Source: Chiloscyllium plagiosum (lineage: Eukaryota). Taken from it: a DNA stretch of 51,900 nt. Position 1 is the stretch's first letter, and every line of letters starts with the position of its first letter. Position numbers and translations under genes: made by a program. Shown piece after piece: positions 5,256 through 50,691 of the stretch. The DNA is taken from the NCBI RefSeq assembly GCF_004010195.1, contig NC_057752.1:4353626-4405525 (forward strand), read 5' to 3'. A model generated the notes under the pieces. The model ran no database searches and was not told the origin of the DNA. It was given only the letters and a program-made list of their open reading frames with translations.

Positions 5256-5364
5256 CCTTCCACCCCATTTCCTGAGGGAAATGAAGGCATGTGGAGTCAG
5301 GATGAAAAATTAGGTCGAGGTGGAAGATTTCACTGAATGGCAAAGTGAGCTAGAGGCACTGTTG

Positions 5365-5426
5365 CGCTTTTCCAGCAACACATTTTCAGCTCTGATCTCC
5401 AGCATCTGCAGACCTCACTTTCTCCG
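5365..5426 (+). mobile_element. Penelope pLTR terminal fragment
   Basis: 'cttttccagcaacacattttcagctctgatctccagcatctgcagacctcactttctcc', nearly identical to 50172-50230. Confidence 0.7.
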
Positions 5427-6109
5427 CACTGAAATAGTCTCCCAATGCTCCTATCTCATATGTTTCATAAGACTTTTGGATGAGAACTCAGCTGCTGAAT
5501 CACTATTGGAATAACTGTAGTGAGCAGGAATTTAGAATTGCCTCAATATTGAAGATAAGAGGTGCTGCATTTGCACTGAAACCTAGACAAACTCCAGGAC
5601 TGAATGGTACAGTGATAAGCACCCGGGTCTGCTCTTGCACTGTGGAGAAGCTCAAACAAAGAATAGCTTGCAAAACCTAGAAGATTTCTCAATGTGGTGT
5701 TGCCTAGCAACAGTGATAAAGCTTTGAGCAGCTATCCCAGAGCTGCAATTCATATCCTGAGCCTGGTATCATTGTGCTTTCACAGCCGATCCTGTTTTAC
5801 ATCAGCATAGCATGGTGACTGCTACTCTCTTACTTCAGGAAGGGCTGGTACACTTAATAACATGTCAATTGAAGAGTCTGTTTTGCCTCCCATTAGGTCT
5901 AATCTTAGATTCTTACCAACAAATCAAAATTGCACATTCCAGGTAATCTGAATGGACACATTCACCCAAATAGCTCAAATACCCAGTTTGGGTGACACAG
6001 TGAAAAGGGATGGGATAGATACCACTCTCCCTCTGGTCCTGAATGCACTGACTGACTTGGCTGTGCTCCCACTGGTAAACGACACCCTAATTTCAATCAC
6101 TCCACTCAC

Positions 6110-6750: not shown

Positions 6751-7170
6751 CCGGACAGACACATTCTGAGGCAGACCAACATCCCCCACATGCCAATTAA
6801 AATATTGAATGTTGCTTCTGTTTGCCTCAGGGCACACCTGACAAGATTGATGCCCGGTCGTGGACGCTAATGCAATGCCAGGTGTGCAGCTTGAAAGTGC
6901 ACCCTGCAGCGTTACGGCAATCAAAGCCTTGTGTGCAGAGCTTTACAAGTCAGCTCCACGTGCTGCTTCCAACTGTAACAGCCTCATTTCTACCCTGCCT
7001 TCAATGTAAGAATGAGCCCAAGGGAGACTGAACAAACAGCGACAGGGAGGGAGAAAGAGCGACGGTGTTCACAAGGTGGGATTTGAGGAAGTCTTTCAAA
7101 GTGGAAAGATGGAAGGGGAAAAGGTTCAAGGAAGCAAATAGGTCCAAGGCAGTCACAAGGGTCTGCAGCC

Positions 7171-7485: not shown

Positions 7486-8221
7486 AAAGCAGGACGAAAG
7501 GGGCTGAGGAGATGCAAAAAGACAGCAGGGGGATATGAAGCTGGAGGAATTCCAGAGATCCAGCAGTCTAAGAGTCTTCAGCTGGAGTCTTTTGTCTTTG
7601 ATTGAATCTGTTGGTGGTTGGGGAGCCAGTGCAGACAACAAAGAGGCCAAAGTGAAACTTAGTGCAGGACAGGACAGGGGGTTGCAGTTCTCAATCAGAG
7701 GAAGAAAGTTCAGTGAGGAAACCTTCGAAAAACATTGAGTCCAGAGCTGAGAAAAGCTGGGATAATTGTCTCAGAAACAGAAGAGCAGTGATCGGGATAG
7801 GAGCAATCAAAGATATGAAACTCTAGAGGGAGAGAACGCCCTTATCTTGGCCTGTACAGTTCACTCAATGCTTTCCACAGCACCAAGAAAATCCCATCCC
7901 TCTGACAGCAAGAGTTAAGTACCCCATCAGAATCGACACTCCCCTCCCCCTGCCCCCACACCCAATCCACACCACTCCAGCCAAGCACATGGATTCCTGG
8001 TCTATCAATACACCGACACATGGAGCCTATTAACAAAGGACCAACCTCACGATATCCACTGCACTTCCAGTTGCAACCTGCCAGTATCTGGATCTCTGAG
8101 TCCGTTGGGATTAATATCTATTCATATTAATTTTCACTGCAGTCCTTGAAGGTGGTGCTAATCCCCGGCATTGTGTTAGCTGACTTAATCCTGACAGTAA
8201 ATATGCCAGGATTAGCCGAAG

Positions 8222-8359
8222 TCAGAAGTCATACAACACCAGGTTACAGTCGAATAGATTTATGTGAAATCACAATCTTCCGGAGCGCTAGTCCTTCATC
8301 ATCTGACGTGTGACTTCTGACTTTGTCCACTCCAGTTGAACACTGGCACTTCCACATCA
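8222..8359. mobile_element. Degenerate Penelope pLTR fold-back remnant (second family)
   Basis: 'acaacaccaggttacagtc...cggagcgctagtccttcatca' followed by the opposite-orientation end 'ttgtccactccagttgaacactggcacttccacatca'; related to 12849-12970. Confidence 0.6.
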
Positions 8360-8569
8360 GGATTATCTGAAACTGGGAAGATTTGTTTCTCCCAGATCTA
8401 TTAGAATTGACAAATTCTCTCACTTACTGCCAGTGTGTACTTGGTTACAACGTGTGCATGAGGAGCCAATGCCCTGAGCAGAGAACACCACCACACCATT
8501 GAACTATCTCAATGACTGGACCTTTATATTGGAATGGTCAGAATTCTCTTCTCCATGAGAAATAAAAAA

Positions 8570-11839: not shown

Positions 11840-12152
11840 TTAGATTAGATTAGATGCCCTACAGTGTGGAAACAGGGCCTTCGGCCCAACAAGTCCACAC
11901 TGACCCTCCGAAGAGTAACCCACCCAGACCCATTTACCCCTGACTAATGCACCTAACACAATGGGCAATTTAGCATGGCCAATTCACCTGGCCTACACAT
12001 CTTTGGATCGTGGGAAGAAACTGGAGCACCCGGAGGAAACCCACGCAGAAACGGGGAGAATGTGCAAACTCCACACAGACAGTCGCCCAAGGCTGGAATT
12101 GAACCTGGGACCCTGGTGCTGTGAGGCTGCAGTGCTAACCACTGAGCCACCG
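11840..12152 (-). mobile_element. HE1-type V-SINE
   Basis: (ttaga)n tail, V-domain, tRNA head. Confidence 0.9.
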
Positions 12153-12249
12153 AGCAGCCCGTTGCTCGAAGAAATTATCTTTCTCTTTTTTTCTCAAGCT
12201 TTGATCTATTTCGTACTCATCAACATAAGGTGTCATCAGTGTTGGGGGA

Positions 12250-12755
12250 GAAACAGTTTGCTTTTATGTAGCACCTTTAAAGTAGTAAAACATCTCAAGG
12301 CGGCACGATGGCACAGTGGTTAGCACTGCTGCCTCACAGTGTCAAAGACCCGGGTTCAATTCCTGCCTCAGGCGACTGACTGTGTGGAGTTTGCACGTTC
12401 TCCCCGTGTCTGCGTGGGTTTCCTCCGGGTGCTCCGGTTTCCTCCCACAATCCAAAGATGTGCAGGGTCAGGTGAATTGGCCATACTAAATTGCCTGTAG
12501 TGTTAGGTAAGGGGTAAATGTAGGGGTATGAGTGGGTTTCGCTTCGGCGGGTCGGTGTGGACTTGTTGGGCCGAAGGGCCTGTTTCCACACTGTAATCTA
12601 ATCTAAAAGGTGCTTCACAGAGCCGTCAGCAAACAAGGCAAGCCATAAGGACATTGAGTAAAGTCTTAGACATATTTGGGTTTTAAGGGAATGCTTAAAG
12701 GAGAGGGAGGTAGAGAGAGGCTGAGATATTTAGGAAAGGAATTGCAGAGCTCAGC
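12250..12755 (-). mobile_element. L2 3' tail interrupted by a SINE
   Basis: 'ttttatgtagcacctttaa...catctcaagg|SINE|aaggtgcttcacag...ttaggaaaggaattgcagagct'. Confidence 0.55.
12299..12606 (+). mobile_element. HE1-type V-SINE (young)
   Basis: Near-consensus copy with CpGs retained and (taatc)n tail; aagg on both flanks. Confidence 0.92.
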
Positions 12756-12826
12756 AAGGGACATCAGTGTGTCTTGCTGTTCTGCAGCAGATCCGTAAAC
12801 TGCTGCAGCAGATCTTTTTGAGTCTC

Positions 12827-12970
12827 CTTCATCAGGTGATAGGTCTATCACCTGATGAAGGAGCGTCGCTCTGAAAGCTAGTGTGCTTCCAATTAAACCT
12901 TTTGGACTGTAACCTGGTGTTGGGTGATTTTTAACTTTGTACACCCCAGTCCAACACCGGCATCTCCAAA
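12827..12970 (+). mobile_element. Penelope pLTR insertion with 5' fold-back and 11-bp TSD
   Basis: TSD ttttgagtctc at 12816-12826 and 12971-12981; perfect 19-bp hairpin at 12824-12863. Confidence 0.85.
12849..12883 (+). ncRNA. Minimal type-I hammerhead ribozyme motif (Penelope-associated, dimer type)
   Basis: cac-CTGATGA-a-GGAGC-gtc-GCTCT-GAAA-GCTA-gtg: core boxes, stem II, palindromic AGCT in place of stem III, and cac/gtg stem I. Confidence 0.7.
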
Positions 12971-13271
12971 TTTTGAGTCTCACATTACCGTGGTTATGCT
13001 TCTGGTTTTGAAATTCACCAGGCCTGGTTCTTGGGTGTGGGTTTCACGACTCATGACCTGCCCACATTGGATCTGACTAAGGTGGGTGCCACTCAAAGTT
13101 ATGTGCCCAATTGTAAGGTATGACCAAACAGGCCCTGAGCTGCTGTTTACACCATCGTGCTGCCACCTCCTCTGTAGGGTGCCAAGCAATATTGTGCAGA
13201 TATGTAGTCCAGCCAACCTTCTCGAAGGCCGATGCCCCTGTTAAAGGGACGTTGTGCTGAATAATATTGGT

Positions 13272-13488
13272 GTCGAGAGTGTGGTGCTGGAAAAACACAG
13301 CAGGTCAGGCAGCATCCAAGGAGCAGGAGAGTCGACATTTCGGGCATAAACCCTTCATCAGGAATTGATGAAGGGCTTTTGCCTGAAACGTCGATTCTCC
13401 TGCTCCTCGGATGCTGCCTGACCTGCTGTGCTTTTCCAGCACCACACTCTCGACTCTGATCTCCAGCATCTGCAGTCCTCACTTTCTC
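13272..13488. mobile_element. Penelope pLTR fold-back element (about 90-bp inverted arms)
   Basis: Arms meet at cttcatcaggaattgatgaag; imperfect TSD ctgaataa(t/c)attgg(t/c)g at 13257-13272 and 13489-13504. Confidence 0.85.
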
Positions 13489-13589
13489 CTGAATAACATT
13501 GGCGGAATTTGCATGATATGACATCAGAGCAAAGAGAGGCTTCGAGGAGGATGATGGATGCAGTGAAAGGAAAGTGGAGTTCCCGGCTT

Positions 13590-15803: not shown

Positions 15804-16358
15804 CCAGGGCTATCAAACAAAAATGTTGTGAAAAATGTGTTAACCAGGCTAGAAAAATGATAACCATCTCAACACAAACTGATAGTCTGAGACTTCTGTC
15901 CTTTTCTGATACCAGGTCGCAAGGCCATAGGGTCAGAGCCTGTTTTCTGGCCCTAGCATACATTTGACGAGAGAGGCCTGAAACTATCCAGCGACTAAGC
16001 CTCAGGCTGTCCAGAAATAACGGCCTAACTGCTTGCTCAGGCCTCCAGAACTTGTGTCACCAGAAAAATTAATTTAGGATTTCCAGCAATGACATTTTGG
16101 TAAGAAACATCTGAGGGGATGTTGTGGGGTGGATTACATCAGGCAATTGCGTGGAAAGGTTCACTGGGGAAGGAGATCAATCAGCAGGACTATAGAGTCA
16201 GTGAGGAAGGGGGAGGGAAGGGGACATCGGTGGTAAAGGGAAGCATTGATCCCCTGGATTAAACAGAAAATTATATTTAGCAGGAGAAAAATTGGACATG
16301 AAGCATTCCACGGTGAAATGAGCACAACTCGAGCTCATAAGCTTGAAAAACAAGGGCA

Positions 16359-16838
16359 ACATTCCTGATGAAGGGCTTATGTGTGAAGCATTGACTCTCC
16401 TGCTCCTCAGATTGATAGAATCCCTCCAGTGTGGAAACAGGCCCTTCAGCCCAACAAGTCCACACTGACCCTGCAAAGAGTATCACATCCAAGTCCATTC
16501 CCCTACCCTGTCATTCTACTTTTACCCCTGACTAATGTAGTTTACCTACACAGTCCTGAAGACTATGGGTAATGTAGCACGGCCAATTAACCCAACCTGC
16601 ATATCGTTGGACTATGGGAGGAAACTGGAGCACCTAGAGGAAACCCACGCAGACACAGGGAGGATGTGCAAACTCCACGCAGACAGTTACCCAAGGCTGG
16701 GATTGAACCTGGGTCCCTGGGGCAATGAGACAACAGTGCTAACCACTGAGCCACCCATGCTGCCTGACCTGCTGTGCTTTTCCAGCACCCCACATTTCGA
16801 CTCTGATTTCCAGCACCTGCAGTCCTCACTTTCACCCT
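16359..16838 (+). mobile_element. Penelope pLTR fragment split by an HE1 SINE
   Basis: 'cattcctgatgaagggcttatg...ctcctcagat' resumes as 'atgctgcctgacctgctg...cagtcctcactttc' after 16756. Confidence 0.75.
16411..16756 (-). mobile_element. HE1-type V-SINE (longer subfamily)
   Basis: V-domain and head, with an extra 'cctacacagtcctgaagactatggg' segment. Confidence 0.85.
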
Positions 16839-17395
16839 GAAAAAAGCTGCAAGCCATTCACAAATATTGAGCCCAGTATCCTTGAGATCTTAAATTCTCC
16901 TGTGGTGTTGTTCACAGATACTGTGGTGAGACGACATAAGGTTCAATGAAGCAGAATAAATTTGAGAGAGAACTGGACATATTTTCTTGTGGGCAAAATG
17001 ATATGGCTGAGGAAATTCAAGTCAGAGGGTATAGGCTGAAAGAAACTGGCGTGGGACAGATTCAGTGACTGGTGTCAAAGCTTGACAATGAAGAGTTCCA
17101 AAGAGTTCAGAGAATGATCAGAGACACAGCACTGAGAAATGAAAATTAAGCTGCATTATTAAATCAGTGGGATATGAATTTTTGAGACTGCTGTTCTGAA
17201 ATTGGACAAAGCCACGTCCTGAAATTGCCAGTTAAAAATAGAAAATGCAGGAAACATTCAATAGCTCGAGCAAGAGGAATGGAGAGAGCTCAGTTGGCTG
17301 ATTTGCAGGGTGATGCCAACAAGCATGGGTTCAATTCCTGTACTGCCTGAGATCACTGCTGAAGGTCTTGTTTTCTCAACCTTGCCCAAGAAGTG

Positions 17396-18185: not shown

Positions 18186-21100
18186 CAGAGAGTCAGAGAG
18201 TCATAGAGTCACAGAGTCATAGAGTCATAGAACCATCGAGTCATAGAGATGTACAGCACGGAAACAGACCCTTCGGTCCAACCCATCCATGCCGACCAGA
18301 TATCCCACCTGCCAGCACCCGGCCCATATCCCTCCAAACCCTTCCTATTCATACACCCATCCAAATACCTTTTAAATGTTGTAATTGTACCAGCCTCCAC
18401 CACTTCCTCTGGCAGCTTATTCCATNNNNNNNNNNNNNNNNNNNNNNNNNNNNNNNNNNNNNNNNNNNNNNNNNNNNNNNNNNNNNNNNNNNNNNACTTT
18501 CAAGGAGCTATGAACCTGCACTCCAAGGTCTCTTTGTTCAGCAACACTCCCCAGGACCTTACCATTATGTGTATAAGTCCTACTAAGATTTGCTTTCCCA
18601 AAATGCAGCACCTCGCATTTATCCAAATTAAACTCCACCGGCCACTTCTCAGCCCATTGGCCCATCTGGTCAAGATCCTGTTGTAATCTGAGATAACCTT
18701 CTTCGCTGTCCACTACACCTCCAATTTTGGTGTCATCTGCAAACTTACTAACTGTACCTCTTATGCTCACATCCAAATCATTTATGTAAATGACAAAAAG
18801 CAGAGGGCCCAGCATCGATCCTTGAGGTCACAGGCCTCCAGTCTGAAAAACAACCCTCCACCACCACCCTCTGTCTTCTACCTTCGAGCCAGTTTTGTAT
18901 CCAAATGGTTAGTTCTCCCTATATTCCATGAGATCTAACCTTGCTAATCAGTCTCCCATGGGGAACCTTGTTGAATGCCTTACTGAAGTCCATATAGATC
19001 ACGTCCACTGCTCTGCCCTCATCAATCCTTTTTGTTACTTCTTTGAAAAACTCAAGCAAGTTTGTGAGACATGATTTCCCACGGACAAAGCCATGTTGAC
19101 TATCCCTAATCAGTCCTTGTCTTTCCAAATACATGTAAATCCTGCCCATCATGATTGCCTCCAACAACTTGGCCACAAACAACATCAGGCTCACCGGTCT
19201 ATAGTTCCCTGGCTTTTCCTTACCACCTTTCTTAAACAGTGGTACCATGTTAGCCAACCTCCAATCTTCCAGCACCTCACCTGTGACTATGAAAGCAAAT
19301 CTTAGCAGGACTTATACACTTCATGGTAAGGCCCTAGGGAGTGTTGCTGAACAAAGACACGTTGGAGTGCAGGTTCATAGCTCCTTGAAAGTGGAGTCGC
19401 AGGTAGATAGGATAGTGAAGAAGGCGTTTGGTATGCTTTCCTTTATTGGTCAGAGTATTGAGTACAGGAGTTGGGAGGTCATGTTGCGGCTGTACACAAC
19501 ATTGGTTAGGCCACTGTTGGAATATTGCGTGCAATTCTGGTCTCCTTCATATCGGAAAGATGTTCTGAAATTTGAAAGGGTTCAGAAAAGATTTACAAGG
19601 ATATTGCCAGGGTTGGAGGATTTGAGCTATAGGGAGAGGCTGGACAGGCTGGGGCTGTTTTTCCTGGAGCGTCAGAGGCTGAGGGGTGACCTTATAGAGA
19701 TTTACAAAATTATGGGGGGCATGGATAGGATAAATAGACAAAGTCTTTTCTCTGGGGTCGGAGAGTCCAGAACTAGAGGGCATAGGTTTAGGGTGAGAGG
19801 GGAAAGATATAAAAAAGACCTAAGGGGTATCTTTTTCACACAGAGAGTGGTACATGTATGGAATGAGCTGCCAGAGGAAGTGGTGGAGGCTGGTACAATT
19901 GCAACATTTAAGAGGCATTTGGATGGATATATGAATAGGAAGGGTTTGGAGGGATATGGGCCGGGTGCTGGCAGGTGGGACTAGATTGTGTTGGGATATC
20001 TGGTCGGCATGGACGGGTGGGACTGAAGGGTCTGTTTTCATGCTGTACATCTCTATGACTCTATGACATATCTCAGCAAAGTGCCCAGCAATCACTTCCC
20101 TGGCTTCCCACAGAGTTCTAGGGTACACCTGATCAGGTCCTGGGGATTTATCCCCTTTTATGCGTTTCAAGACATCCAGCACCTCCTCCTCTGTAATAAA
20201 GACATTTTTCAAGATGTCACCATCTATTTCCCTACATTCTATATCTTCCATGCCCTTTTCCTCAGTAAACACTGATGCAAGATACTTGCTTCGTAACTCC
20301 CCCATCTCATGCGGTTCCACTCAAAGGCCGCCTTGCTGATCTTTGAGGGGCCCTATTCTCTCCCTAGTTACCCTTTTGTCGTTAATGTATTTGTAAAAAC
20401 CCTTTGGATCTCCTTAACCCTATTTGCCAAAGCTATCTCTTGTCCCCGTTTTGCCCTCCTGTTTTCCCTCTTAAGTATACTCCTACTGCCTTTCTACTCG
20501 TCTAAGGATTCTCTCGATCTCTCCTGTCTGTACCTGACATATGCTTCCTTCTTTTTCTTAACCAAACCCTCAATTTCTTTAGTTACCCAGCATTCCCTAC
20601 ACCTACCAGCCTTCCCTCTCACCCTGACAGGAACATACTGTGTCTGGACTCTCATTATCTCACTCTGAAGGCTTCCCATTTTCCAGCCGTCCCTTTACCT
20701 GTGAACATCTGCCCCCAATCAGCTTTCGAAAGTTCTTTCCTAATACCGTCAAAATTGGTCTTTCTCCAATTTTGAACTTCAACTTTTAGATCTGGTCTAT
20801 TCTTTTCCATCATTATTTTAAAACTAATAGAATTATGGTCGCTGGCCCCAAAGTGCTCCCCCACTGACACCTCAGTCACCTGCCCTGCCTTATTTCCCAA
20901 GAGTAGGTCAAGTTTTGCACCTTCTCTAGTAGGTACATCCACATACTGAATCAGAAAATTGTCTTGTACACACTTAAGAAATTCCTCTCCATCTAAACCT
21001 TTAACACTGTTGCAGTTCCAGTCTATGTTTGGTCAGTTAAAATCCCCTACCATAACCACCCTATTATTCTTACAGATAACTGAGATCTCCTTACAAATTT

Positions 21101-24632: not shown

Positions 24633-25314
24633 CTGTGTCGCTATTTTGCAGCATTGCCTTGCAAAGATGCTCGCTCTCATTTTATTGCCTGTGCCTGGTA
24701 CATGGTGGCAAGCTACAGCACTGGCAGTTGATCTTGAAGAAAGCTTCCCACAATGATCTTGCAGTCTCTGTGGCATCTCAGCTTGAATCTGGTGACAAGT
24801 CAAAGGGATCTCCAAGCATCCAGCAGCATGGGCTCAAGAATCAAAGTCAGTCACATCAAAGCATTCGCACCCACAGCAATTGCATGCAACCAGAGCTAGG
24901 AAGTTAAAAACCACTGAGAGTTTTCACTCCTCATTTATTAAATTTTACAGATAGTGAGCAAAATGATTGGGAGATAACATGCGATTGAGTTAAAAACTTA
25001 AAGGTCAGAAAGAAGTTTGAAAGATAAATTGTGGAGGTAATGCAGAAATTGGACATTCGACAAGCGTTAAAATATTCTTTCTGGACCAGTCTGGTTGGTT
25101 AGCAGTAATTAAGATTTCACATCTTGTTTAAAAACTGAATTTGAGTCAACAAGATGCAACCTTTTCAAGGACTTTTACAGTAGACCCAAGAGAATCTGAG
25201 CTAACTCAAGTCAGTTCAGTGATTCCTGATTAATTACTGTCTGGGAAGAGATCTCAACAGCACACCTTTGAGAGAAGGGTTTCACTGCGTGCGTGTAGAT
25301 TCCAGAATTTACTG

Positions 25315-27136
25315 AGGAGAAAGTGAGGACTGCAGATGCTGGAGATCAGAGTCGAAGAGTGTATTGCTGGAAAAGCACAGCAGGTCAGGCAGCATCCGAG
25401 GAGCAGGAGAGTCAACGTTTCAGGCATAAGCCCCTCATCAGGAATGAGGCTTGTGGCCCAAGGAGGCTGCGAGATAAATGGGAGGAGGATGGGGCTGAAT
25501 TTGAATGGAATTTATTGTCACGTGAACCGAGGCACAGTGAAAAGCTTTGCCTTGCGAGCAATACTGGCAGATCATATCGTTAAGTAGTATAGATAAGCAA
25601 ATAATAGGGAAACAACAGCAAAAGCAAAAACACAGGTACAGGCTAATGTTAAGACTGTTTCGAAACCGGCTGGTGCGTGTGTTCAGGCTTCTGTACCTTC
25701 TCCCTGATGGTAGAGGTTGTAGAAAAACATTGCCAGGGTGGGATGGATCTTTGAGAATGCTGGCGGCCTTTCCGTGACAGCGGGCCTGGTAGACGGATTC
25801 TACAGATGGGAGGTTGACCTTTGTGATTGTCTGGGCTGAGTTCACCACTCTCTGTAACAGTCTCTGATCTTGAATGGCACAGTTGCCACACCAGGTAGTG
25901 ATACATCCAGACAGAATGCCCTCGATGGCGCACCTATAAAAGTTGGCAAGGGTATTCGCCGTCATGCCAAATTTCCTCAGCTGCCTGAGGAAGAAGAGAC
26001 GTTGTTGGGCCTTTGTAACCAGTGCACCCACATGAAGAGTCCAAGAAAGCTTGTTGTGGATGACCCACTCCCAGGAGCTTGACACACCCCACTGGTTCCA
26101 CTCTGTGCTGTTAATGTGTGTGGGGGGGAGGGGGGGGAAGGGGGGGCGTGAGTAACATCNNNNNNNNNNNNNNNNNNNNNNNNNNNNNNNNNNNNNNNNN
26201 NNNNNNNNNNNNNNNNNNNNNNNNNNNNNNNNNNNNNNNNNNNNNNNNNNNNNNNNNNNNNNNNNNNNNNNNNNNNNNNNNNNNNNNNNNNNNNNNNNNN
26301 NNNNNNNNNNNNNNNNNNNNNNNNNNNNNNNNNNNNNNNNNNNNNNNNNNNNNNNNNNNNNNNNNNNNNNNNNNNNNNNNNNNNNNNNNNNNNNNNNNNN
26401 NNNNNNNNNNNNNNNNNNNNNNNNNNNNNNNNNNNNNNNNNNNNNNNNNNNNNNNNNNNNNNNNNNNNNNNNNNNNNNNNNNNNNNNNNNNNNNNNNNNN
26501 NNNNNNNNNNNNNNNNNNNNNNNNNNNNNNNNNNNNNNNNNNCCCTCTTGGAACAGGCAGGGACAGTGGCCTGCTGCAGGGAGAGGTTGCAGATGTCCGA
26601 GAAGACCTCTGTCAGTTGATCTGAGCATGCTCTGAGTGCACGGCCTGGTACTCCGTCTGGTCCCATCGCTTTCCTTGGATTCACAGGAAGGAAAACTGAT
26701 CTGACCTCTGATGCAGTGACTGTTGGGATAGGTTTGTCCAGACTTATTGGAATAGGTGTTACCTCTCCGCCGAAATTCTTCTCAAAGTGAGCGTAGAAGG
26801 CGTTGAGATGATCTGGGAGGGATATGTCATCATCTGCTATCTTGCACTGTCTCTGGGGGGAAGGGAGCTGAGAATGTGATAGGTGGATGGAGGTGGGGGT
26901 GAAGGTGATAGACCATTATGCATCCCTCTGACCTATCACCTTCACCCCCACCTCCATCTACCTATCACATTCCCAGCTCCTTTCCCCCCAGCCCCAACCC
27001 CCTCCTATTCATCTCTCATCCCCCTTGGCCCACAAGCCTCATTCCTGATGAAGGGCTTATACTCCAAACGTCGATTCTCCTGTTCCTCGGATGCTGCCTG
27101 ACCGGCTGTGCTTTTCCAGCACCACACTCTTTGACT
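25315..27136. mobile_element. Penelope fold-back element split by a Rex1/Babar insertion
   Basis: Left arm 25315-25497 continues at 26853-26909; inverted right arm about 26925-27136; cagaatttac at 25303-25312 and 27138-27147. Confidence 0.8.
25497..26852 (-). mobile_element. Rex1/Babar non-LTR retrotransposon 3' portion (contains an assembly gap)
   Basis: PRKAMGPDGVPGRALRACSDQL; KAQQRLFFLRQLRKFG...FYRCAIEGILSGCITTW...DPSHP...LPSGRRYRSL..RTSRFRNS; (attca/ttcaaa)-type tail. Confidence 0.9.
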
Positions 27137-27750
27137 GCAGAATTTACAGTCACTTACAGAGGAAGCACAACAGCAGATGTGAAAATCTTGGTCAATGGAA
27201 AATGTGTCCTGTGAAAGTACAATAGAATTGATTCTAAGCTTTCAAAGCTCCTGGCAACTGGGGTTTGTAGGTTTCTCCAGCTGCACGTTGTTAATATCTC
27301 ATGAAGTGCAGAAGCTTAAAGGATAACACTGGTTATATCACAAAAACAATCATATTGCAGCCTATTGTTTTACAACAGTCACAAGATTCAGCTTTCAAAG
27401 CTGTTAAAATAGCCAATCATTGTGGGGGGATTGCTGGCTTGGAATAAAACCCCCTGTCATGCAGCACTTGCTCCCATTGTACAGTTCACACATCATTCCA
27501 TTCACCTTCCAGCCTTTCAAAGTTGCAAACAATAACAGTTGAGGAAAAGGATAGAGTAACAGGGACTTGGAAATACATTCAAAACTGATCACTGATATCA
27601 GCCTTCAAAAGGTTATGGATATATTCCATTTTCTTCTTTTGGTTCCTGCAACACTGTTTGATGAAAAGCATTCATTTTTTTTTCAAAATTTCAAACAGTT
27701 AATCAGGTAAAGAAAGTCCTGCTTGTAAACAAACTAGAATCATGGAGTCA

Positions 27751-36310: not shown

Positions 36311-36319
36311 TAGACTAAG

Positions 36320-37256
36320 GTATAAAGGGAAATGCAGGATATTGGAACTGAAATTACAGGGAAAATGCAGGGCATTGGGGCTGAAAATATAAAGGGAAAA
36401 CACACGGTATTAGAGCTTAAAGTATGAATGGAGTGCAAGGGCATTAGAGCAGAAAGTAGAGGGGTACATCGAGCATTAGAGCTGAAAGAATAGAGGGAAT
36501 TGGAGGTATTTAGAGCTGAAAGTATAGACAGTATTAGAGCTGCAAGTAAAGAAGGACATTCAAGCTGTTCGAGCTGAAAGTACAGAGGGAAACTCAGGAC
36601 ATTAGAGCTGAAAGTACAGAGGGAAACACAGGGTATGAGAGCTGAAAGTACAGAGGGAAACACAGGACATTAGAGCTGAAAGTACAGAGGGAAACACAGG
36701 GTATTAGAGCTGAAAGGACAGAGGGAAACACAGGCCATTACAGCTGAAAGTACAGAGGGAAACACAGGACATTAGAGCTGAAAGTACAGAGGGAAACACA
36801 GGGTATTAGAGCTGATAGTACAGAAGGAAACACAGGGTATTAGAGCTGAAAGTACAGAGGGAAACTCAGGACATTAGAGCTGAAAGTACAGAGGGAAACA
36901 CAGGGTATTAGAGCTGAAAGTACAGAGGAAAACACAGGACATTAGAGCTGAAAGTACAGAGGGAAACTCAGGACATTAGAGCTGAAAGTACAGAGGGAAA
37001 CACAGGGTATTAGAGCTGAAAGTACAGAGGGAAACACAGGGCATTAGAGCTAAAAGTACAGAGGGAAACACAGGACATTAGAGCTGAAAGTACAGAGGGA
37101 AACACAGGGTATTAGAGCTGAAAGTACAGAGGGAAACACAGGCCATTACAGCTGAAAGTACAGAGGGAAACACAGAACATTAGAGCTGAAAGAACAGAGG
37201 GAAACACAGGGTATTAGAGCTGAATGTACAGAGGGAAACACAGGCCATTACAGCTG
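36320..37256. repeat. 34-bp minisatellite (attagagctgaaagtacagagggaaacacagg[gt/ac]) running into an assembly gap
   Basis: Units start at 36601, 36635, 36669, 36703 and onward; degenerate units at about 36320-36570. Confidence 0.97.
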
Positions 37257-38294: not shown

Positions 38295-38539
38295 TCAACA
38301 GGCACAGGTCGCCCTGTTACAAAACCACATCCAAATCTTGCACTTGCTCTTTGGATATCCTTGTTTCAGAAATTAATTGATTGTCGACACACCAGTATTT
38401 ATCTCCCGTGAACAAATAAATCTTGTAGTTTTTCCAAGTGATTGCAGCATTGAAGTTTTGGTGGAGATCTAGTGAAGAGGGTCTTTGGAAAACAGAGGCT
38501 GTTGCAGTGGTTTCCATCCCATTGCCAGTAACCATCACC
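38295..38539 (-). pseudogene. MMP19: Frameshifted terminal exon of an MMP19-like matrix metalloproteinase (hemopexin repeats 3-4)
   Basis: Acceptor ttgttttctgtag| then phase-0 GDGYWQWDG...FPKTLFT /fs/ NFNAAITWKNYKIYLFTGDKYWCVDNQL /fs/ QGYPKSKCKIWMW; parallels the MMP19 last exon (GSGYWQWDE...YPK...LFTG...AAMSW...VYFFKG..YWRLNQQLRVEKGYP...WM). Confidence 0.8.
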
Positions 38540-38564
38540 CTACAGAAAACAAATGACCTATTTA

Positions 38565-40032: not shown

Positions 40033-40130
40033 GATTTTAGATCAGAATGGTGCTGGAAGAGCACAGCAGGTCAGGCAGCACCACTCTAATCTAAATTCTG
40101 GTTTTCAGCATCTGCAGTCCTCACTTTTGT
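40033..40130. mobile_element. Tiny Penelope pLTR fold-back remnant
   Basis: 'tggtgctggaagagcacagcaggtcaggcagcacca...cagcatctgcagtcctcactttt'. Confidence 0.65.
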
Positions 40131-45028: not shown

Positions 45029-48000
45029 TGTAACAAGATCAACCAGGTGGACCTCATAGAATATGAGTTGCCTGATTAGATCAGATTAACGGCCCCTGAC
45101 AGATAGAAAACCAGTGTTGAGGTTCTGTTCACTCAGAACTGGCTCTGAGGAAGCTGGACCAGTGTCAAGGACTATGTACTTCAGTGGCGATGAGAGTGGG
45201 ATTAATGATGTAACCATGCAAAAGCCTACTAGCTGAAGCCCAACTGGAATTCAAACAGGCACTTCAACTGGCTTTGTCATTAGAAAATGTAGCAAGTGGA
45301 GTATATGAGTTACATGGTATTCCGATGGAAGTGAACATCGATACCAGGCCGACTGAGTTTGGGAAAGACCATTCGAGTGAAGGCAATTGCATAGCCTCAC
45401 TCAGGGCATATCCTGAACAGAGGGACTCTAGGCCAGCTCACAGCAAAACCCCAAAACAAAAACAAGCCTCGACAAAATGGTTAAAATTTTCTTCAGGATC
45501 TTGGCTAGCAAGTCATTGTAGTTACTGCCGGTATGTGAACTCAAGACAGCAAGAGAGTCCCACTAGATCCAAAATGGAGTAAAAGAACTCAGAGTCGAAG
45601 AGTGTAGTGCTGGAAAAGCACAGCAGGTCAGGCAGCATCCGACGAGCAGGAGAATCAACATTTTGGGTGTAAGCTCTTCATCAGGCATTCCTGACAAAGG
45701 GCTTATGCTCAAACATCGATTCTCCTGTTCCTCGGAAGCTGCCTGACCAGCTGTGCTTTTCCAGTACCACACTCTTCAACTCTGATCTCCGGCATCTGCA
45801 GTCCTCATTTTCCCCTGAGAGAACGCACGAGGCTGGAATCCAGGAGAATTCCACACCCTGGAAAGTTCTCCTACACCTGGTTTGGAACAGTTAAATTGCT
45901 TAGCAACATCCAAATCAGAACCAATCAAAATAAATGTCTGGTGAAACAGTCACCCTGTTCTAATAAACGTCGATACTGGTGCGGCTGTTTCAGGAATTGC
46001 AGAACCAGTCTTTAACAAAATCTGCTCTGGACTCCAATCCTTAAATTTGCGCAAGACCTCGGCTAGACTGTGAACCTGGACCGGAGAACCATTATAGATT
46101 AATGGTACAACTTTGGTTTTAGTCTCCTGTGAGAAGCAGCTGGTTCAGTGATTGTAGTAAGAGGCTTGGACCCAAGCTTGATGGGGTGGAATTGGTTGAA
46201 AAAGATTAATCTTGATTGACTCAACATTTTTGAATTAGAAAATGGCTGCCTGATTAAACACTTCGAGGGACTGTTAAAGGACCCAAGGCCATTTTGCATG
46301 TTGACCAGGACACAGTTCCATGATTCAGTAAGGCCCACGTAGTACTATTTGTCTTATTGGCCAAAATAGAAGCAGAAATCAGGAGGCTGGAAAGTAAAGG
46401 AATCGCCAAACCAGTCCAGTTTGTGGAATGGGCAGCACCGGTCGTACTGATTGTGAAGCCCGATAGGTTCGTTCACCTTTGTGGGGATTTTAAACAAACA
46501 GTAAACCACTTCTCACACCTGGATAAATACCCAATCCCTCACATAGAGGGTTTATACGCAAAGCTGGTCAGGGGGAGGGTGTCCTTCACAAAGCTGGACA
46601 TGAGCCATGCGTACCCTGCAATTGCAGTAAGATGAGGATTCCCAGAACTATACTACAATTAATACTCATAAGGGTTTGTATCAATATATGAGACTGCCAT
46701 TTGGGGTATCATCAGCCTGTGCAATCTTTCAGTGGACAATGGAGAACATTTTACAAGGTCTACCTCAGGTTGCCATTTATCCAGATGACATGTTAATAAC
46801 AGGGAAGACCAATAAAGAGCACTTAGAGAACTTGAAACACAGTGCTTAGATGTTTATCCAAGGCAGGCATATGCCTTAGAAGGGAAAAATGTGTGTTCCC
46901 TATAGCCCACATAAGTCACTTGGGGGGGGCCTGGTCGATACGACTGGCTTACACCTGTTGGAAGATAAAGTGAGGATGTTCAAAGATGCTTCATGTCCAT
47001 ACCAGACCTTAGGTCTTTCCTTGGATTGGTGAATTATTATAGAAAACTCATACATCACCTCTGACTTCAGTCCTGCACCCTTGAAAAAAAGGGTCAACCT
47101 TAGAAATGGTTTCATAGCCAAGACGTAGCCTTTAGGGAGGTGAAGCAGCAGCTATTGTCATCAAAGGTGTGAGCACACTATGATCCCAGGATCTGATGCT
47201 GACATGCAATGAATCCTCATACGGTATCAGGGTGGTATTGGCTCACTGATGGCCCAATGGAGAGAAACGCCCAATAGCTTCTGGCTCCCAGACTTTAGCT
47301 GATGCAGAACACAAACATTCCCTGATAGAAAGGGAAGGTTTGATGTTCATCTTTGATGTGAGAAAGTTCCACCAATACCCTTACAGATATAAATTTGTAA
47401 CAGTAACAATCCAAAAACGCGCTAGGGTGACTCAAAGAGGACAAGGTCATGCTGCCCATAGCTTCAGGTTGAATTCAGCAGTGGGCTCTCATTCTGTGCA
47501 CATACAATTACACATTGGAACTCCATCCAGGAGGACAAGGAGTAAATGGGCATGCATTGAGTGGCCTCCCATTGTCAGATACTTCACTGGTGTCACTGCC
47601 ACTGTAAGAGTCCATTCTGATTTTAAACTTTCAGGACACCCTTCTAGTCACTGCTGACAATATCCGAATGTGGACATAAAAGTATGTGGTCTTGGCAAAA
47701 CTAAAACAGCTGGGTGGTGATTGAGAAAAAACAGAAGGCCATCACAGCCAGGACTGAAACCTTTCTGGACACGGCGAGACCAGAGCACCATAGAGAAAGG
47801 CATCTTATTATGGAGAGCAAGAGTGACTGTCCAGAGTAAAGTTCGCCACTCTACCAGGGTCATCCAGGGGTTTCCAAAATGAAGATGTTGGTGAGAAGTT
47901 ACATGACCAGGATTGGATGCAGACATACCCATATTGGTGGGGCAGATCCCAAATTGCCAATGAGGACAAAGATTAGTGCCTTACGTTCCCCCACATTCAT

Positions 48001-48147
48001 GGGAGTGGCTGGGTAAACCCCGAACTCGGTTACATGTCGATTACTCTTTCATGGATTCCAACTTCTTAGTCATTGTAGACACCACTCAAAGTGGTTGGAT
48101 ATTCATAGAGATCATTTGTCAAACACAGGCACAACAATAGAAAAACT
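45029..48147 (+). mobile_element. Decayed Gypsy (Mag-like) LTR retrotransposon: short LTR, PBS, partial gag, PR, RT, RNase H, start of IN
   Basis: TG...CA at 45029-45183 then tggcgatgag; VDTGAAVS (about 45970); WAAPVV..KPD...LCGDFK, FTKLDMSHAY, RLPFGVSSACAIFQ, YPDDMLITG; SYGIRVVL; RLHVDY...FLVIVD; many stops and frameshifts. Confidence 0.9.
45589..45815. mobile_element. Penelope pLTR fold-back element inside the Gypsy element
   Basis: Two inverted arms of about 95 bp meeting at cttcatcaggcattcctgacaaag. Confidence 0.8.
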
Positions 48148-49899
48148 GGCCATCTGATCAAGATCCCGTTGTAATCTGAGATAACCTTCTTCGTTGTCCA
48201 CTACACCTCCAATTTTGGTGTCATCTGCAAACTTACTAACTGTACCTCTTATGCTCACATCCAAATCATTTATATAAATGACAAAAAGTAGAGGACCCAG
48301 CACCAATCCTTGTGGCACTCCACTGGTCACGGGCCTCCAGTCTGAAAAACAACCCTCCACCATCACCCTCTGTCTTCTACATTTGAGCCAGTTCTTTATC
48401 CAAATGGCTAGTTCGCCCTGTATTCCATGTGATCTAACCTTGCTAACCAATCTCCCATGGGGAACTTTGTTGAATGCCTTACTGAAGTTCATATAGATCA
48501 CATCAACCACTCTGCCCTCATCAATCCTCTGAGTTTTTTGAAGAAGTAACAATCAAGTTTGTGAGACATGATTTCCTACGCACAAAGCCATGTTGACTAT
48601 TCCTAATCAGTCCTTGCCTTTCCAAATACATGTACATCCTGTCCCTCAGGATTCCCTCCAACAACTTGCCCACCACTGACGTCAGGCTCACTGATTTGTA
48701 GTTCCCTGGCTTTTCCTTACTACCTTTCTTAACTGGTGGCACCACATTAGCCAACCTCCAGTCTTCCGGCACCTCACCTGTAACTATCAATGATACAAAT
48801 ATCTCTGCAAGAGGCCCAGAAATCACTTCCCTAGCTTCCCAAAGAGTTCTGGGTACACCTGATCAGGTCCTGGGGATTTATCCACCTTTATGTGTTTCAA
48901 GATATCCAGCACTTCCTCCTCTGTAATACAGACATTTTTCAAGAAGACACCTCTCCTTACAAATTTGTTTCTCAATTTCCCTCTGACTATTAGGGGGTCT
49001 GCAATACCATCCCAATAAGGTGATCATCCCTTTCTTATTTCTCAGTTCCACCCAAATAACCTCCCTGGATGTATTTCTGGGAATATCCTCCCTCAGCACA
49101 GCTGTAATGCAATCCTTTATCAAAAACACCACTCCCCCTCCTCACTTGCCTCCCTTTCTATCCTGGAACATTAATCTGCCAGTCCTGTCCATCCCTGAGC
49201 CATGTTTCTGTAATTGCTATGATATCCCAGTCTCATGTTTGTAACCATGCCCTGAGTTCATCTGCCTTCCCTGTTAGGCCTCTTACATTGAAATAAATGC
49301 AGTCTAATTTATATCGTTCACTGCTTTGTTCCTGCCTGCCCTAACTATTTGTTTGGTACAGTTGGGAAAAGGAGCAAGTCAGTGTCAGACTGATCTCTTT
49401 CCTCCCACCTTACTAGTTTAAATCCTCCCGAGCAGCTCTAGCAAATCTCCCTGCCAGTACATTAGTCCCCTTCCAGTTTAGGTGCAATCCATCCCTTTTG
49501 TACAGGTCACTTCTACCCCAGGAGAGATTCCAATGATTCAAAAATGTGAATCCTTCTCCCATACACCAGCTCCTCAGGCACACATTCATCTGCTCTATTC
49601 TCCTATTCCTACCCTCACTAACTTGTAGCACTGGGAGTAATCCAGATATTACTACTCATAAGGACCTCCTTTTTAAATTCCTGCCTAACTTTCTATATTC
49701 TCCCTTCAGAATCTTATCCTTTTCCCTTTCAATGTCGTTGGTTTCAAGTGCACAATGAGCTCCTTCTGGTCCCTGTTCCCCTTGAGAATATTCTGTACTT
49801 TCTCAGAAATATTTTTGATCCTGGCACCAGGGAGGCAACACACCATGCTGATTTTTCACTGCTGGCCATAGAAACATCAGTCTGTGCCTCTGACTAGAG

Positions 49900-49935
49900 A
49901 ATCGACGTTTCGGGCATAAGCCCTTCTTCAGGAAT
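49900..49935 (-). ncRNA. Minimal hammerhead ribozyme motif (dimer type)
   Basis: Minus strand: attc-CTGAAGA-a-GGGC-ttat-GCCC-GAAA-CGTC-gatt; palindromic ACGT and a GUC cleavage triplet. Confidence 0.7.
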
Positions 49936-50228
49936 GAGGAAAGTTTGTCCAGCAGGCTAAGATAAAAGGTAGGGAGGAGGGACTTGGGGGAGGGGCGTCG
50001 GAAATGCGATAGGTGGAAAGAGGTCAAGGTGAGGGTGATAGGTCAGACTGGGGTGGGGGCCTCCCTACCTTTTATCTTAGCCTGCTGGACAAACTTTCCT
50101 CATTCCTGAAGAAGGGCTTATGCCCGAAACTTCAATTCTCCTGTTCCCTGGATGCTGCCTGACCTGCTGCGCTTTTCCAGCAACACATCTTTAGCTCTGA
50201 TCTCCAGCATCTGCAGACCTCATTTTCT
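49901..50228. mobile_element. Young Penelope pLTR fold-back element with 14-bp TSD inside CR1 ORF1
   Basis: TSD cctctgactagaga at 49887-49900 and 50229-50242; perfect 71-bp inverted arms 49907-49977 and 50060-50130. Confidence 0.9.
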
Positions 50229-50691
50229 CCTCTGACTAGAGAGTCCCCTAACACAATCGATCGCTTGGAACCTGACGTACCTCTCGTCACCCTAGAGCCA
50301 GTCTTGGTACCATCACTCCCTACATTTTCCAAAACAGCATACTTGTTTGAGATGGGGATAGCCACAGAAGACTCCTACGCTACCTGCCTACCCCCCTACC
50401 TTTCCTGGAGGTAACCCACCTACCTGACTGTATCTGTGGCGTTTTTTTCTTCCTATAACTGCCATCCAGCACACCCCCTAGCTCTTGTAAATTCCTCATT
50501 GCATCTAACTGCTGCTCCAACCAATCCATGCGATCTGATAGGATGCACAGCCAAAGACACTTCCTACAGCCATATCATCAGTAATATGGAAACTCTCCCT
50601 AAACTCCCACATCTGACAGGAAGAGCACATCACTCTACTAAAGGCCACCTTTGCACCATCTACAGATCCAGAAAATAACACAGCCTTACTA

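Follow-up and report, generated by a model that had tools for sequence, protein, structure and literature searches.

In a 51,900-nucleotide stretch of the Chiloscyllium plagiosum genome, here called the window, a minimal hammerhead ribozyme motif lies directly downstream of an inverted copy of its own core. Is this fold-back a device that governs the ribozyme, or a trace of the way in which the sequence arrived? The comparisons described here favour the second answer, at a probability of about 0.9: the locus is a 5'-truncated insertion of a Penelope-like element (PLE), immobile by itself, and the hairpin is an insertion scar rather than an evolved switch.

Anatomy of the locus

Three pieces make up the insertion: an inverted arm, two nucleotides of filler, and the terminal 126 nt of a PLE pseudo-LTR (pLTR) of very high copy number, referred to below as family A. 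Its parts are as follows.

12816..12826 (+): 11-nt target-site duplication, left copy; the final 3 nt double as the outer end of the arm and pair there (microhomology)
12824..12842 (-): inverted 5'-truncated arm, antisense of 12845-12863 (5' strand of stem I, core and first 4 nt of stem II)
12843..12844: GT, two filler bases where the arms meet head to head; the family upstream letters there are CA, judging by loose ends before 12845
12845..12970 (+): forward arm, the last 126 nt of the family A pLTR, with 3-4 differences from the family majority letters
12849..12883 (+): minimal type-I hammerhead motif
12872 (+): T at a CpG, against C in the family majority, so that the conserved G10.1-C11.1 pair becomes G-U
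12892..12897 (+): hexamer ATTAAA, resembling a poly(A) signal; poly(A) follows 12908 and 12912 in family RNA
12971..12981 (+): target-site duplication, right copy, whose first base, 12971, is the commonest 3' end of the family too

The arms at 12824-12842 and 12845-12863 are exact reverse complements of 19 nt each, separated by GT, just as the first-pass annotation had described the inverted copy over the core. No other perfect hairpin in the window combines arms of at least 12 nt with a loop no longer than 10 nt. When the window was simulated 20 times with an order-2 Markov model, the longest perfect arm reached 8-12 nt. The hairpin 60-mer has a folding z of -6.5 against shuffles. An exact 11-nt target-site duplication (12816-26 and 12971-81) encloses 144 nt holding both arms, and matches of at least 11 nt occurred in 11 of 2861 random zone pairs of equal size. 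Because the duplication surrounds the arm as well as the hammerhead motif, both arrived in one insertion event. An inverted, 5'-truncated copy at the 5' end, with the whole unit inside a target-site duplication, is the form that PLE insertions take. The outer 3 nt of the arm (12824-26) are also the last 3 nt of the left duplication copy, so that just 16 nt of the arm are certainly element-derived. On its left the insertion adjoins a small local duplication (12782-12814, CTGCAGCAGATC twice), in which a short hairpin is possible.

Sequencing data were compared with positions 12610-13265 at 85% likeness in four of 24 runs: three DNA runs, from organisms A, B and C (the first covered whole, the others to about 85% and 61%), and one single-cell poly(A) RNA run (about 2%). 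A sample of a second study bridges the 3' junction (12947-13265) with 0 differences. The left flank has no depth in the read and contig comparison, and none of the contigs listed for the four runs bridges the hairpin junction, which is known only from the assembly. Such a junction could be a fold-back artefact of assembly or library preparation at a real insertion. An artefact would have had to close exactly on an 11-nt duplication with a 3-nt overlap. The arms at other inverted stubs in the window have diverged, moreover, which marks such structures as old genomic DNA, and an artefact is highly improbable here.

A very common family of PLE ends

Matching contigs number 26,073, 27,699 and 21,972 in the three DNA runs, and matching RNA reads 2,206; nearly all fall on 12845-12971. 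Contig depth in the DNA runs, a crude measure, is about 1e6-5e6 on 12852-12961 as against 136-901 on 12808-29. Loose ends behind 12971, the commonest family 3' end, were found in 774, 1665 and 1221 contigs respectively. Family A is thus a repeat of high copy number, dispersed, whose 3' ends are fixed and whose 5' ends vary, as is expected of PLE insertions. The present copy diverges from the family majority at 3-4 of 126 places (2.5-3.2%). Depth on the orthologous flanks in organisms B and C was nil at 85% likeness, with a filter that omits records, and an empty insertion site was not found in those two organisms. The locus is one short copy, already ageing, of the end that carries the ribozyme in a very common retroelement, and the family may already be catalogued in the supplements of PMC4209133 and PMC8557442.

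The antisense arm is not shared by this family. The listed loose ends before 12845-49 carry other family upstream sequence in place of the arm, and depth at 12840, by the same crude measure, is 0.03-0.2% of core depth. Since family copies carry different sequence upstream of 12845-49, the arm is copy-specific. This bears on the idea that hairpin and hammerhead together form a small non-autonomous mobile element that is copied whole. Some contigs in all three DNA runs do reach 12840-44, with fold-backs in nearly the same register. Depth at 12840, however, is the small fraction of core depth given above, the fold-back contigs differ by 1-6-nt indels at the apex, and the listed opposite-strand joints pair 12845-50 with many partners (12883-12931), so that a mobile unit of this kind has very little to commend it. 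The near-register fold-backs, a few contigs per run (2-8 per listed indel), are either independent hot-spot events or a small subfamily.

Family RNA carries poly(A) behind 12908 (429 reads) and behind 12912 (368 reads). Polyadenylation thus falls 11-15 nt after the ATTAAA/AATAAA hexamer and upstream of the usual 3' end at 12971; the hexamer region is common to family A and its distant relative L002. Family RNA reads also cross the cleavage site of the hammerhead, with a depth of 1244 before it and 1173 over it and no pile of ends, cut pieces being mostly lost in such a library.

Which element the family belongs to can be judged through relatives. A search of metagenome contigs returned two marine loci, L001 and L002, with the same motif; viral contigs searched for relatives gave no match. 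L002 aligns along the full forward arm, and its pLTR follows a frame that scores 0.97 with GIY-YIG clusters (Atlas) and has no Pfam hit. Ahead of this GIY-YIG-like frame (L002:48-578) stands a CxxxxCxxC motif, which would be compatible with the linker that PMC8557442 describes for PLEs of the Neptune/Nematis type. In L001 an inverted reverse-transcriptase fragment (RVT_1, E 1.5e-5, below the curated cut-off) lies upstream of a homologous pLTR. The window holds no PLE reading frame of family A, and the link to reverse transcriptase and GIY-YIG runs through relatives from another organism. The adjacency of these coding pieces to homologous pLTRs argues that family A is probably the pLTR end of an endonuclease-bearing PLE.

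The hammerhead motif

The geometry of the motif agrees with that given in the first-pass annotation. Stem I has just 3 bp (12849-51 with 12881-83). The core CUGAUGA (12852-58) is followed by an extra unpaired A (12859) between positions 9 and 10.1. Stem II (12860-64 with 12868-72) consists of the pairs G-U, G-C, A-U, G-C and C-G and is closed by a 3-nt loop. GAAA occupies 12873-76 and the palindrome AGCU 12876-79, and the cleavage triplet CUA ends at 12880. Minimal type-I hammerheads of PLEs are recognized by a CUGANGA core with GAAA and a U-H cleavage site, an extra nucleotide at 9/10.1, a palindromic 15.1-16.1 and the absence of loop III. All of these are present, and the core, the extra nucleotide and the loop-less palindrome bear out the assignment to this class.

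Positions 10.1 and 11.1 depart from the class. This copy has G-U there, a pairing that would lower hammerhead activity. The family majority, L001 and L002 have G10.1-C11.1, a pair described as highly conserved (PMC4209133). The G-U pair reflects decay of this copy, in which C at a CpG has changed to T: C at 12872 makes up 74%, 65% and 79% of contig depth in the three DNA runs and is read in 1022 of 1441 RNA reads (71%). 'Intact-looking', the earlier description, was thus too generous, although the missing pair lowers the case for an intact ribozyme and not that for a copy of a family having one.

The covariance search that had been proposed for the motif scored nothing against the Rfam hammerhead families, at E up to 5 in the window or up to 10 on 12800-13000; the stem III loop being absent, this miss is not counted against the motif. 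Rfam miRNA-type matches to the hairpin lie far below gathering scores and were set aside as generic stem matches. Between family A and a second family of the window, family B (two lineages only), the third pair of stem II changes from A-U to G-C, the palindrome from AGCU to ACGU, and the second pair of stem I is swapped. Within family A the listed variation falls in loop II and at CpG sites.

The nearest related motif, at about 8300, is degraded and on the opposite strand, and a tandem partner is absent. A single unit with no tandem array differs from a retrozyme, in which two or more hammerhead units stand in tandem. In a folding model without tertiary terms, the minimum-energy fold of two copies is not the active dimer, either for this copy (-12.5 versus -29.7 kcal/mol) or for L001 with its G-C pair (-19.3 versus -32.1 kcal/mol); given the missing terms, this outcome carries no weight here. 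Cleavage of lone minimal hammerheads in vitro is reported as undetectable, and dimers cleave weakly (PMC4209133); dimer cleavage was described by Lunse et al., as reviewed in PMC6765202. The ancestral family motif, should it be active, would cleave weakly, as a dimer within tandem RNA of the element.

Other PLE stubs in the window

A BLAST search with the window's own copies yields 10 PLE-end insertions, two of family A and eight of family B. Besides the locus described above, they are as follows.

8207-8365: degraded relative of family A
2068-2218, 5356-5431, 13257-13496, 16344-16844: family B stubs
25303-27147, 40048-40127, 45589-45819, 49887-50242: family B stubs, continued

An 18-nt match at 14179-96 was too short to be counted. 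Eight of the 10 stubs have an inverted arm and seven the hammerhead core, five of these seven with an antisense core as well; the two family B stubs at 2068-2218 and 40048-40127 have no core. Arm complementarity is perfect at 12824-12863 and 87-98% at the other arms in the window. Exact duplications of 6-16 nt flank eight of the nine stubs tested, those of 6-8 nt being weak alone (among 2861 random zone pairs, 925 match over at least 6 nt). Of six inverted stubs checked, two show microhomology where the arm ends on its outer side (3 nt at 12824-26, 4 nt at 49897). At two stubs, 8207-8365 and 2068-2218, each arm carries sequence that is missing from the other arm; in the latter the inverted and forward arms abut (reference positions 69-104 and 105-181) inside a 16-nt duplication.

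Two of the family B stubs (13257-13496 and 45589-45819) are near-symmetric hairpins with arms of 89 and 75 nt, an apex at the 5' edge of the core and a hammerhead-like motif in each arm, on its own strand. Another (25303-27147) has a 59-bp fold-back at 26853-26991 and a 10-nt duplication, and is split by a later LINE-like fragment containing an assembly gap. The window also holds two SINE-like copies of about 310 nt (11845-12159 and 12299-12606) in opposite orientation, 139 nt apart and 87% complementary, with at least 10 further copies of the same repeat elsewhere. A 34-nt minisatellite occupies 36316-37256, with about 20 copies in its core array. At 6801-7028 (+), 18417-19311 and 46631-48552 lie a weak match to a PHD finger and, from other retroelements, several fragments of reverse transcriptase and RNase H.

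Origin of the hairpin

The insertion could have formed in the following way. (i) The element's endonuclease would nick both target strands, 11 nt apart. (ii) One target 3' end would prime a cDNA from the usual start at 12971 back to 12845. (iii) The other 3' end would anneal over 3 nt to the RNA at 12861-63; from there a second cDNA of 16 nt would be primed, likewise stopping at 12845. (iv) The two cDNAs would be joined head to head with 2 filler bases. In an alternative to the second priming, the first cDNA would snap back on itself, giving the same product. (v) Later drift of 2.5-3% would include the C-to-T change in the G10.1-C11.1 pair.

Published work on PLEs provides several of these elements. 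A recurrent pattern is an inverted, 5'-truncated copy beside the 5' end, together with a one-sided tail of 30-40 nt (PMC8557442); rotifer pLTRs have 5' ends with palindromes of 18 and 38 bp (PMC3846280). Purified PLE protein nicks and extends both target strands and begins reverse transcription downstream of the hammerhead, at internal sites that are fixed (PMC11167929). In an alga, the median length of new PLE insertions is 128 bp (PMC9977147).

As between the two routes, two primings account for somewhat over half of the total likelihood and snap-back of one cDNA for about a third. Two primings are indicated at 8207-8365 and 2068-2218, because each arm there holds sequence that the other lacks, which snap-back cannot give. 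Against two primings, microhomology appears at only two of the six inverted stubs, and arms that end at one base also fit snap-back; self-priming is the route favoured in PMC3846280.

A switch or a side effect?

The opposing interpretation takes the arm as a selected antisense switch, with the ribozyme off in read-through RNA and cutting when transcription starts inside the hairpin. The calculated energetics fit. Forcing the hammerhead fold costs 23.5-23.9 kcal/mol with the arm and 1.0-3.0 kcal/mol without it, and with the arm the core bases are unpaired with a probability of at most 0.001. The earlier expectation that a read-through hairpin would sequester the core is thereby upheld by calculation, at some 24 kcal/mol against the hammerhead fold. 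Sense read-through RNA would fold into the hairpin and not the ribozyme, as a side effect of the insertion. The arm is also still perfect, in contrast to the others in the window.

That perfection needs no selection, however: at 2.5-3.2% divergence a 19-bp stem would remain perfect with a probability of 0.29-0.38. An inverted arm is the commonest state of PLE stubs in the window, and the present one is absent from family upstream sequence and lies inside the target-site duplication. The notion of a ribozyme 'with its own' antisense as a regulatory feature finds no footing in these results. There is also little to switch off, given a lone copy with a decayed 10.1-11.1 pair, the absence of a tandem partner and the undetectable cleavage of lone motifs in vitro. 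RNA depth on the flanks (12764-12829 and 12984-13265) was nil in 1,943 million letters of one 3'-biased run, a 2% sample and weak evidence. Finally, host gene context was sought by comparing 164 open frames with Pfam (39 of the 49 of at least 120 aa, and 125 of 62-119 aa outside repeats, a range that misses shorter exons), and the sole host-like exon that this brought up is frameshifted and lies 25 kb away on the minus strand. A selected switch is therefore most unlikely.

The host-like piece itself (38300-38540, minus strand) is an exon-like hemopexin repeat (Pfam E 8e-7) resembling those of matrix metalloproteinases, after a splice-acceptor-like AG. It is either a pseudogene or an assembly error, because its protein-like reading shifts frame twice.

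Does the apex mark the start of element RNA?

Tentatively, the apex of the hairpin might be the 5' end of the element RNA, where cDNAs primed on the two nicked strands would run off before being joined head to head; this proposal is rather doubtful. In such a model a promoter in the upstream pLTR would start transcripts 4-8 nt before the hammerhead core, which in family B means the A of an initiator-like motif. Reverse transcription would begin about 125 nt downstream, at an internal site in the 5'-most pLTR copy, because transcripts ending at the poly(A) signal of the last pLTR would stop short of that site.

Several observations point this way. Five of the seven core-bearing stubs begin at most 8 nt before the core, and the apex here lies 7 nt before it. 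Among the opposite-strand joints shown, six of nine have one side at 12845-50; the nominal p of 5e-6 is inflated, because the stretch lacks family sequence further upstream and the joints are 9 of 17 rows. The initiator consensus is YYANWYY, which 636 of 7278 background windows of 14 nt contain. All four family B arms that keep native upstream sequence have an initiator-like TCATTCC with its A at -4, and the three short core-bearing stubs of that family start at -4 or -5. Agreement is poorer in family A, where six of the seven consensus positions match, with the A at -8 and arms from -7.

Against an RNA start, three rows among the loose ends listed comprise 1,017 RNA reads that extend upstream beyond 12845-49, and a pile of RNA starts is not among the matches listed. 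The upstream-continuing reads are 3'-anchored and may stem from the last pLTR. In Drosophila Penelope, as described in PMC4209133 and PMC2377424, transcription starts further upstream, with an intron between. Two other causes of the 5' boundary were rejected: ribozyme cleavage, the cut site being 35 nt downstream of the apex, and a splice acceptor as in Drosophila Penelope, there being no AG directly before 12845 among the listed loose ends. A literature search over titles and abstract openings, including few subscription journals, found none on 5' boundaries clustered at a PLE hammerhead.

Relation to known systems

The closest counterpart of the motif is the minimal hammerhead of the pLTRs of metazoan PLEs (Cervera and De la Pena 2014, PMC4209133). 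As described there, it has the same core, the extra nucleotide at 9/10.1, a short stem I, a palindromic 15.2-16.2 and no loop III, and it likewise occurs as dispersed single copies of truncated elements and as pairs in opposite strands. The present copy differs in its G-U at 10.1-11.1, its 5-bp stem II and the antisense repetition of half of the motif directly upstream.

Endonuclease-positive PLEs (Craig 2021, PMC8557442; Arkhipova 2013, PMC3846280; Schostak 2008, PMC2377424) are reported to show the same head-to-head 5' inverted copy and junction palindrome, with target-site duplications of about 8-11 nt and microhomology at the 5' junction as here. Unlike those elements, the present locus has no reading frame, an arm of only 16-19 nt and an apex 7 nt before the core.

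PAc, a Poseidon element of Anolis carolinensis (Frangieh 2024, PMC11167929), likewise has fixed 3' start points downstream of the hammerhead, and its nicking and extension of both strands would give two cDNAs. RNA ends do not pile at the cut site in either PAc or family A; the PAc reading frame starts in stem II. The PAc hammerhead needed its protein and was dispensable for insertion in vitro (PMC11167929). The parts of that study at hand contain no account of inverted arms or of a 5' boundary at the hammerhead.

Non-LTR retrozymes (bioRxiv 10.64898/2026.07.22.740005; PMC7229834) resemble the locus in being non-coding and in having a type-I hammerhead derived from PLE pLTRs. They are defined by tandem units (bioRxiv 10.64898/2026.07.22.740005), whereas the locus is a single unit.

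The arrangement of the arms also invites comparison with LINE-1. Twin priming in that element (Ostertag and Kazazian 2001) reportedly yields an inverted 5' part and a short stretch of homology to the second target end. Abutting arms of the kind that this model describes occur in the stub at 2068-2218, whereas the arms at 12824-12863 overlap fully and end at the same base.

Biological significance

Taken singly, the locus is of little import, one among very many decaying PLE ends. What appears as a ribozyme with its own antisense is, in this genome, the default product of PLE insertion, which is a warning for readers of such motifs. That the arms begin just before the core, and not at the cut site, bears on the origin of inverted PLE ends and on the role of the hammerhead. 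If the RNA-start proposal is true, the stubs are complete run-off copies and not random truncations, and in most of them antisense has silenced the ribozyme from the outset. Should transcription start at the apex, the positions of PLE promoters could be read from genomic stubs, which would also offer a direct test of priming on both strands.
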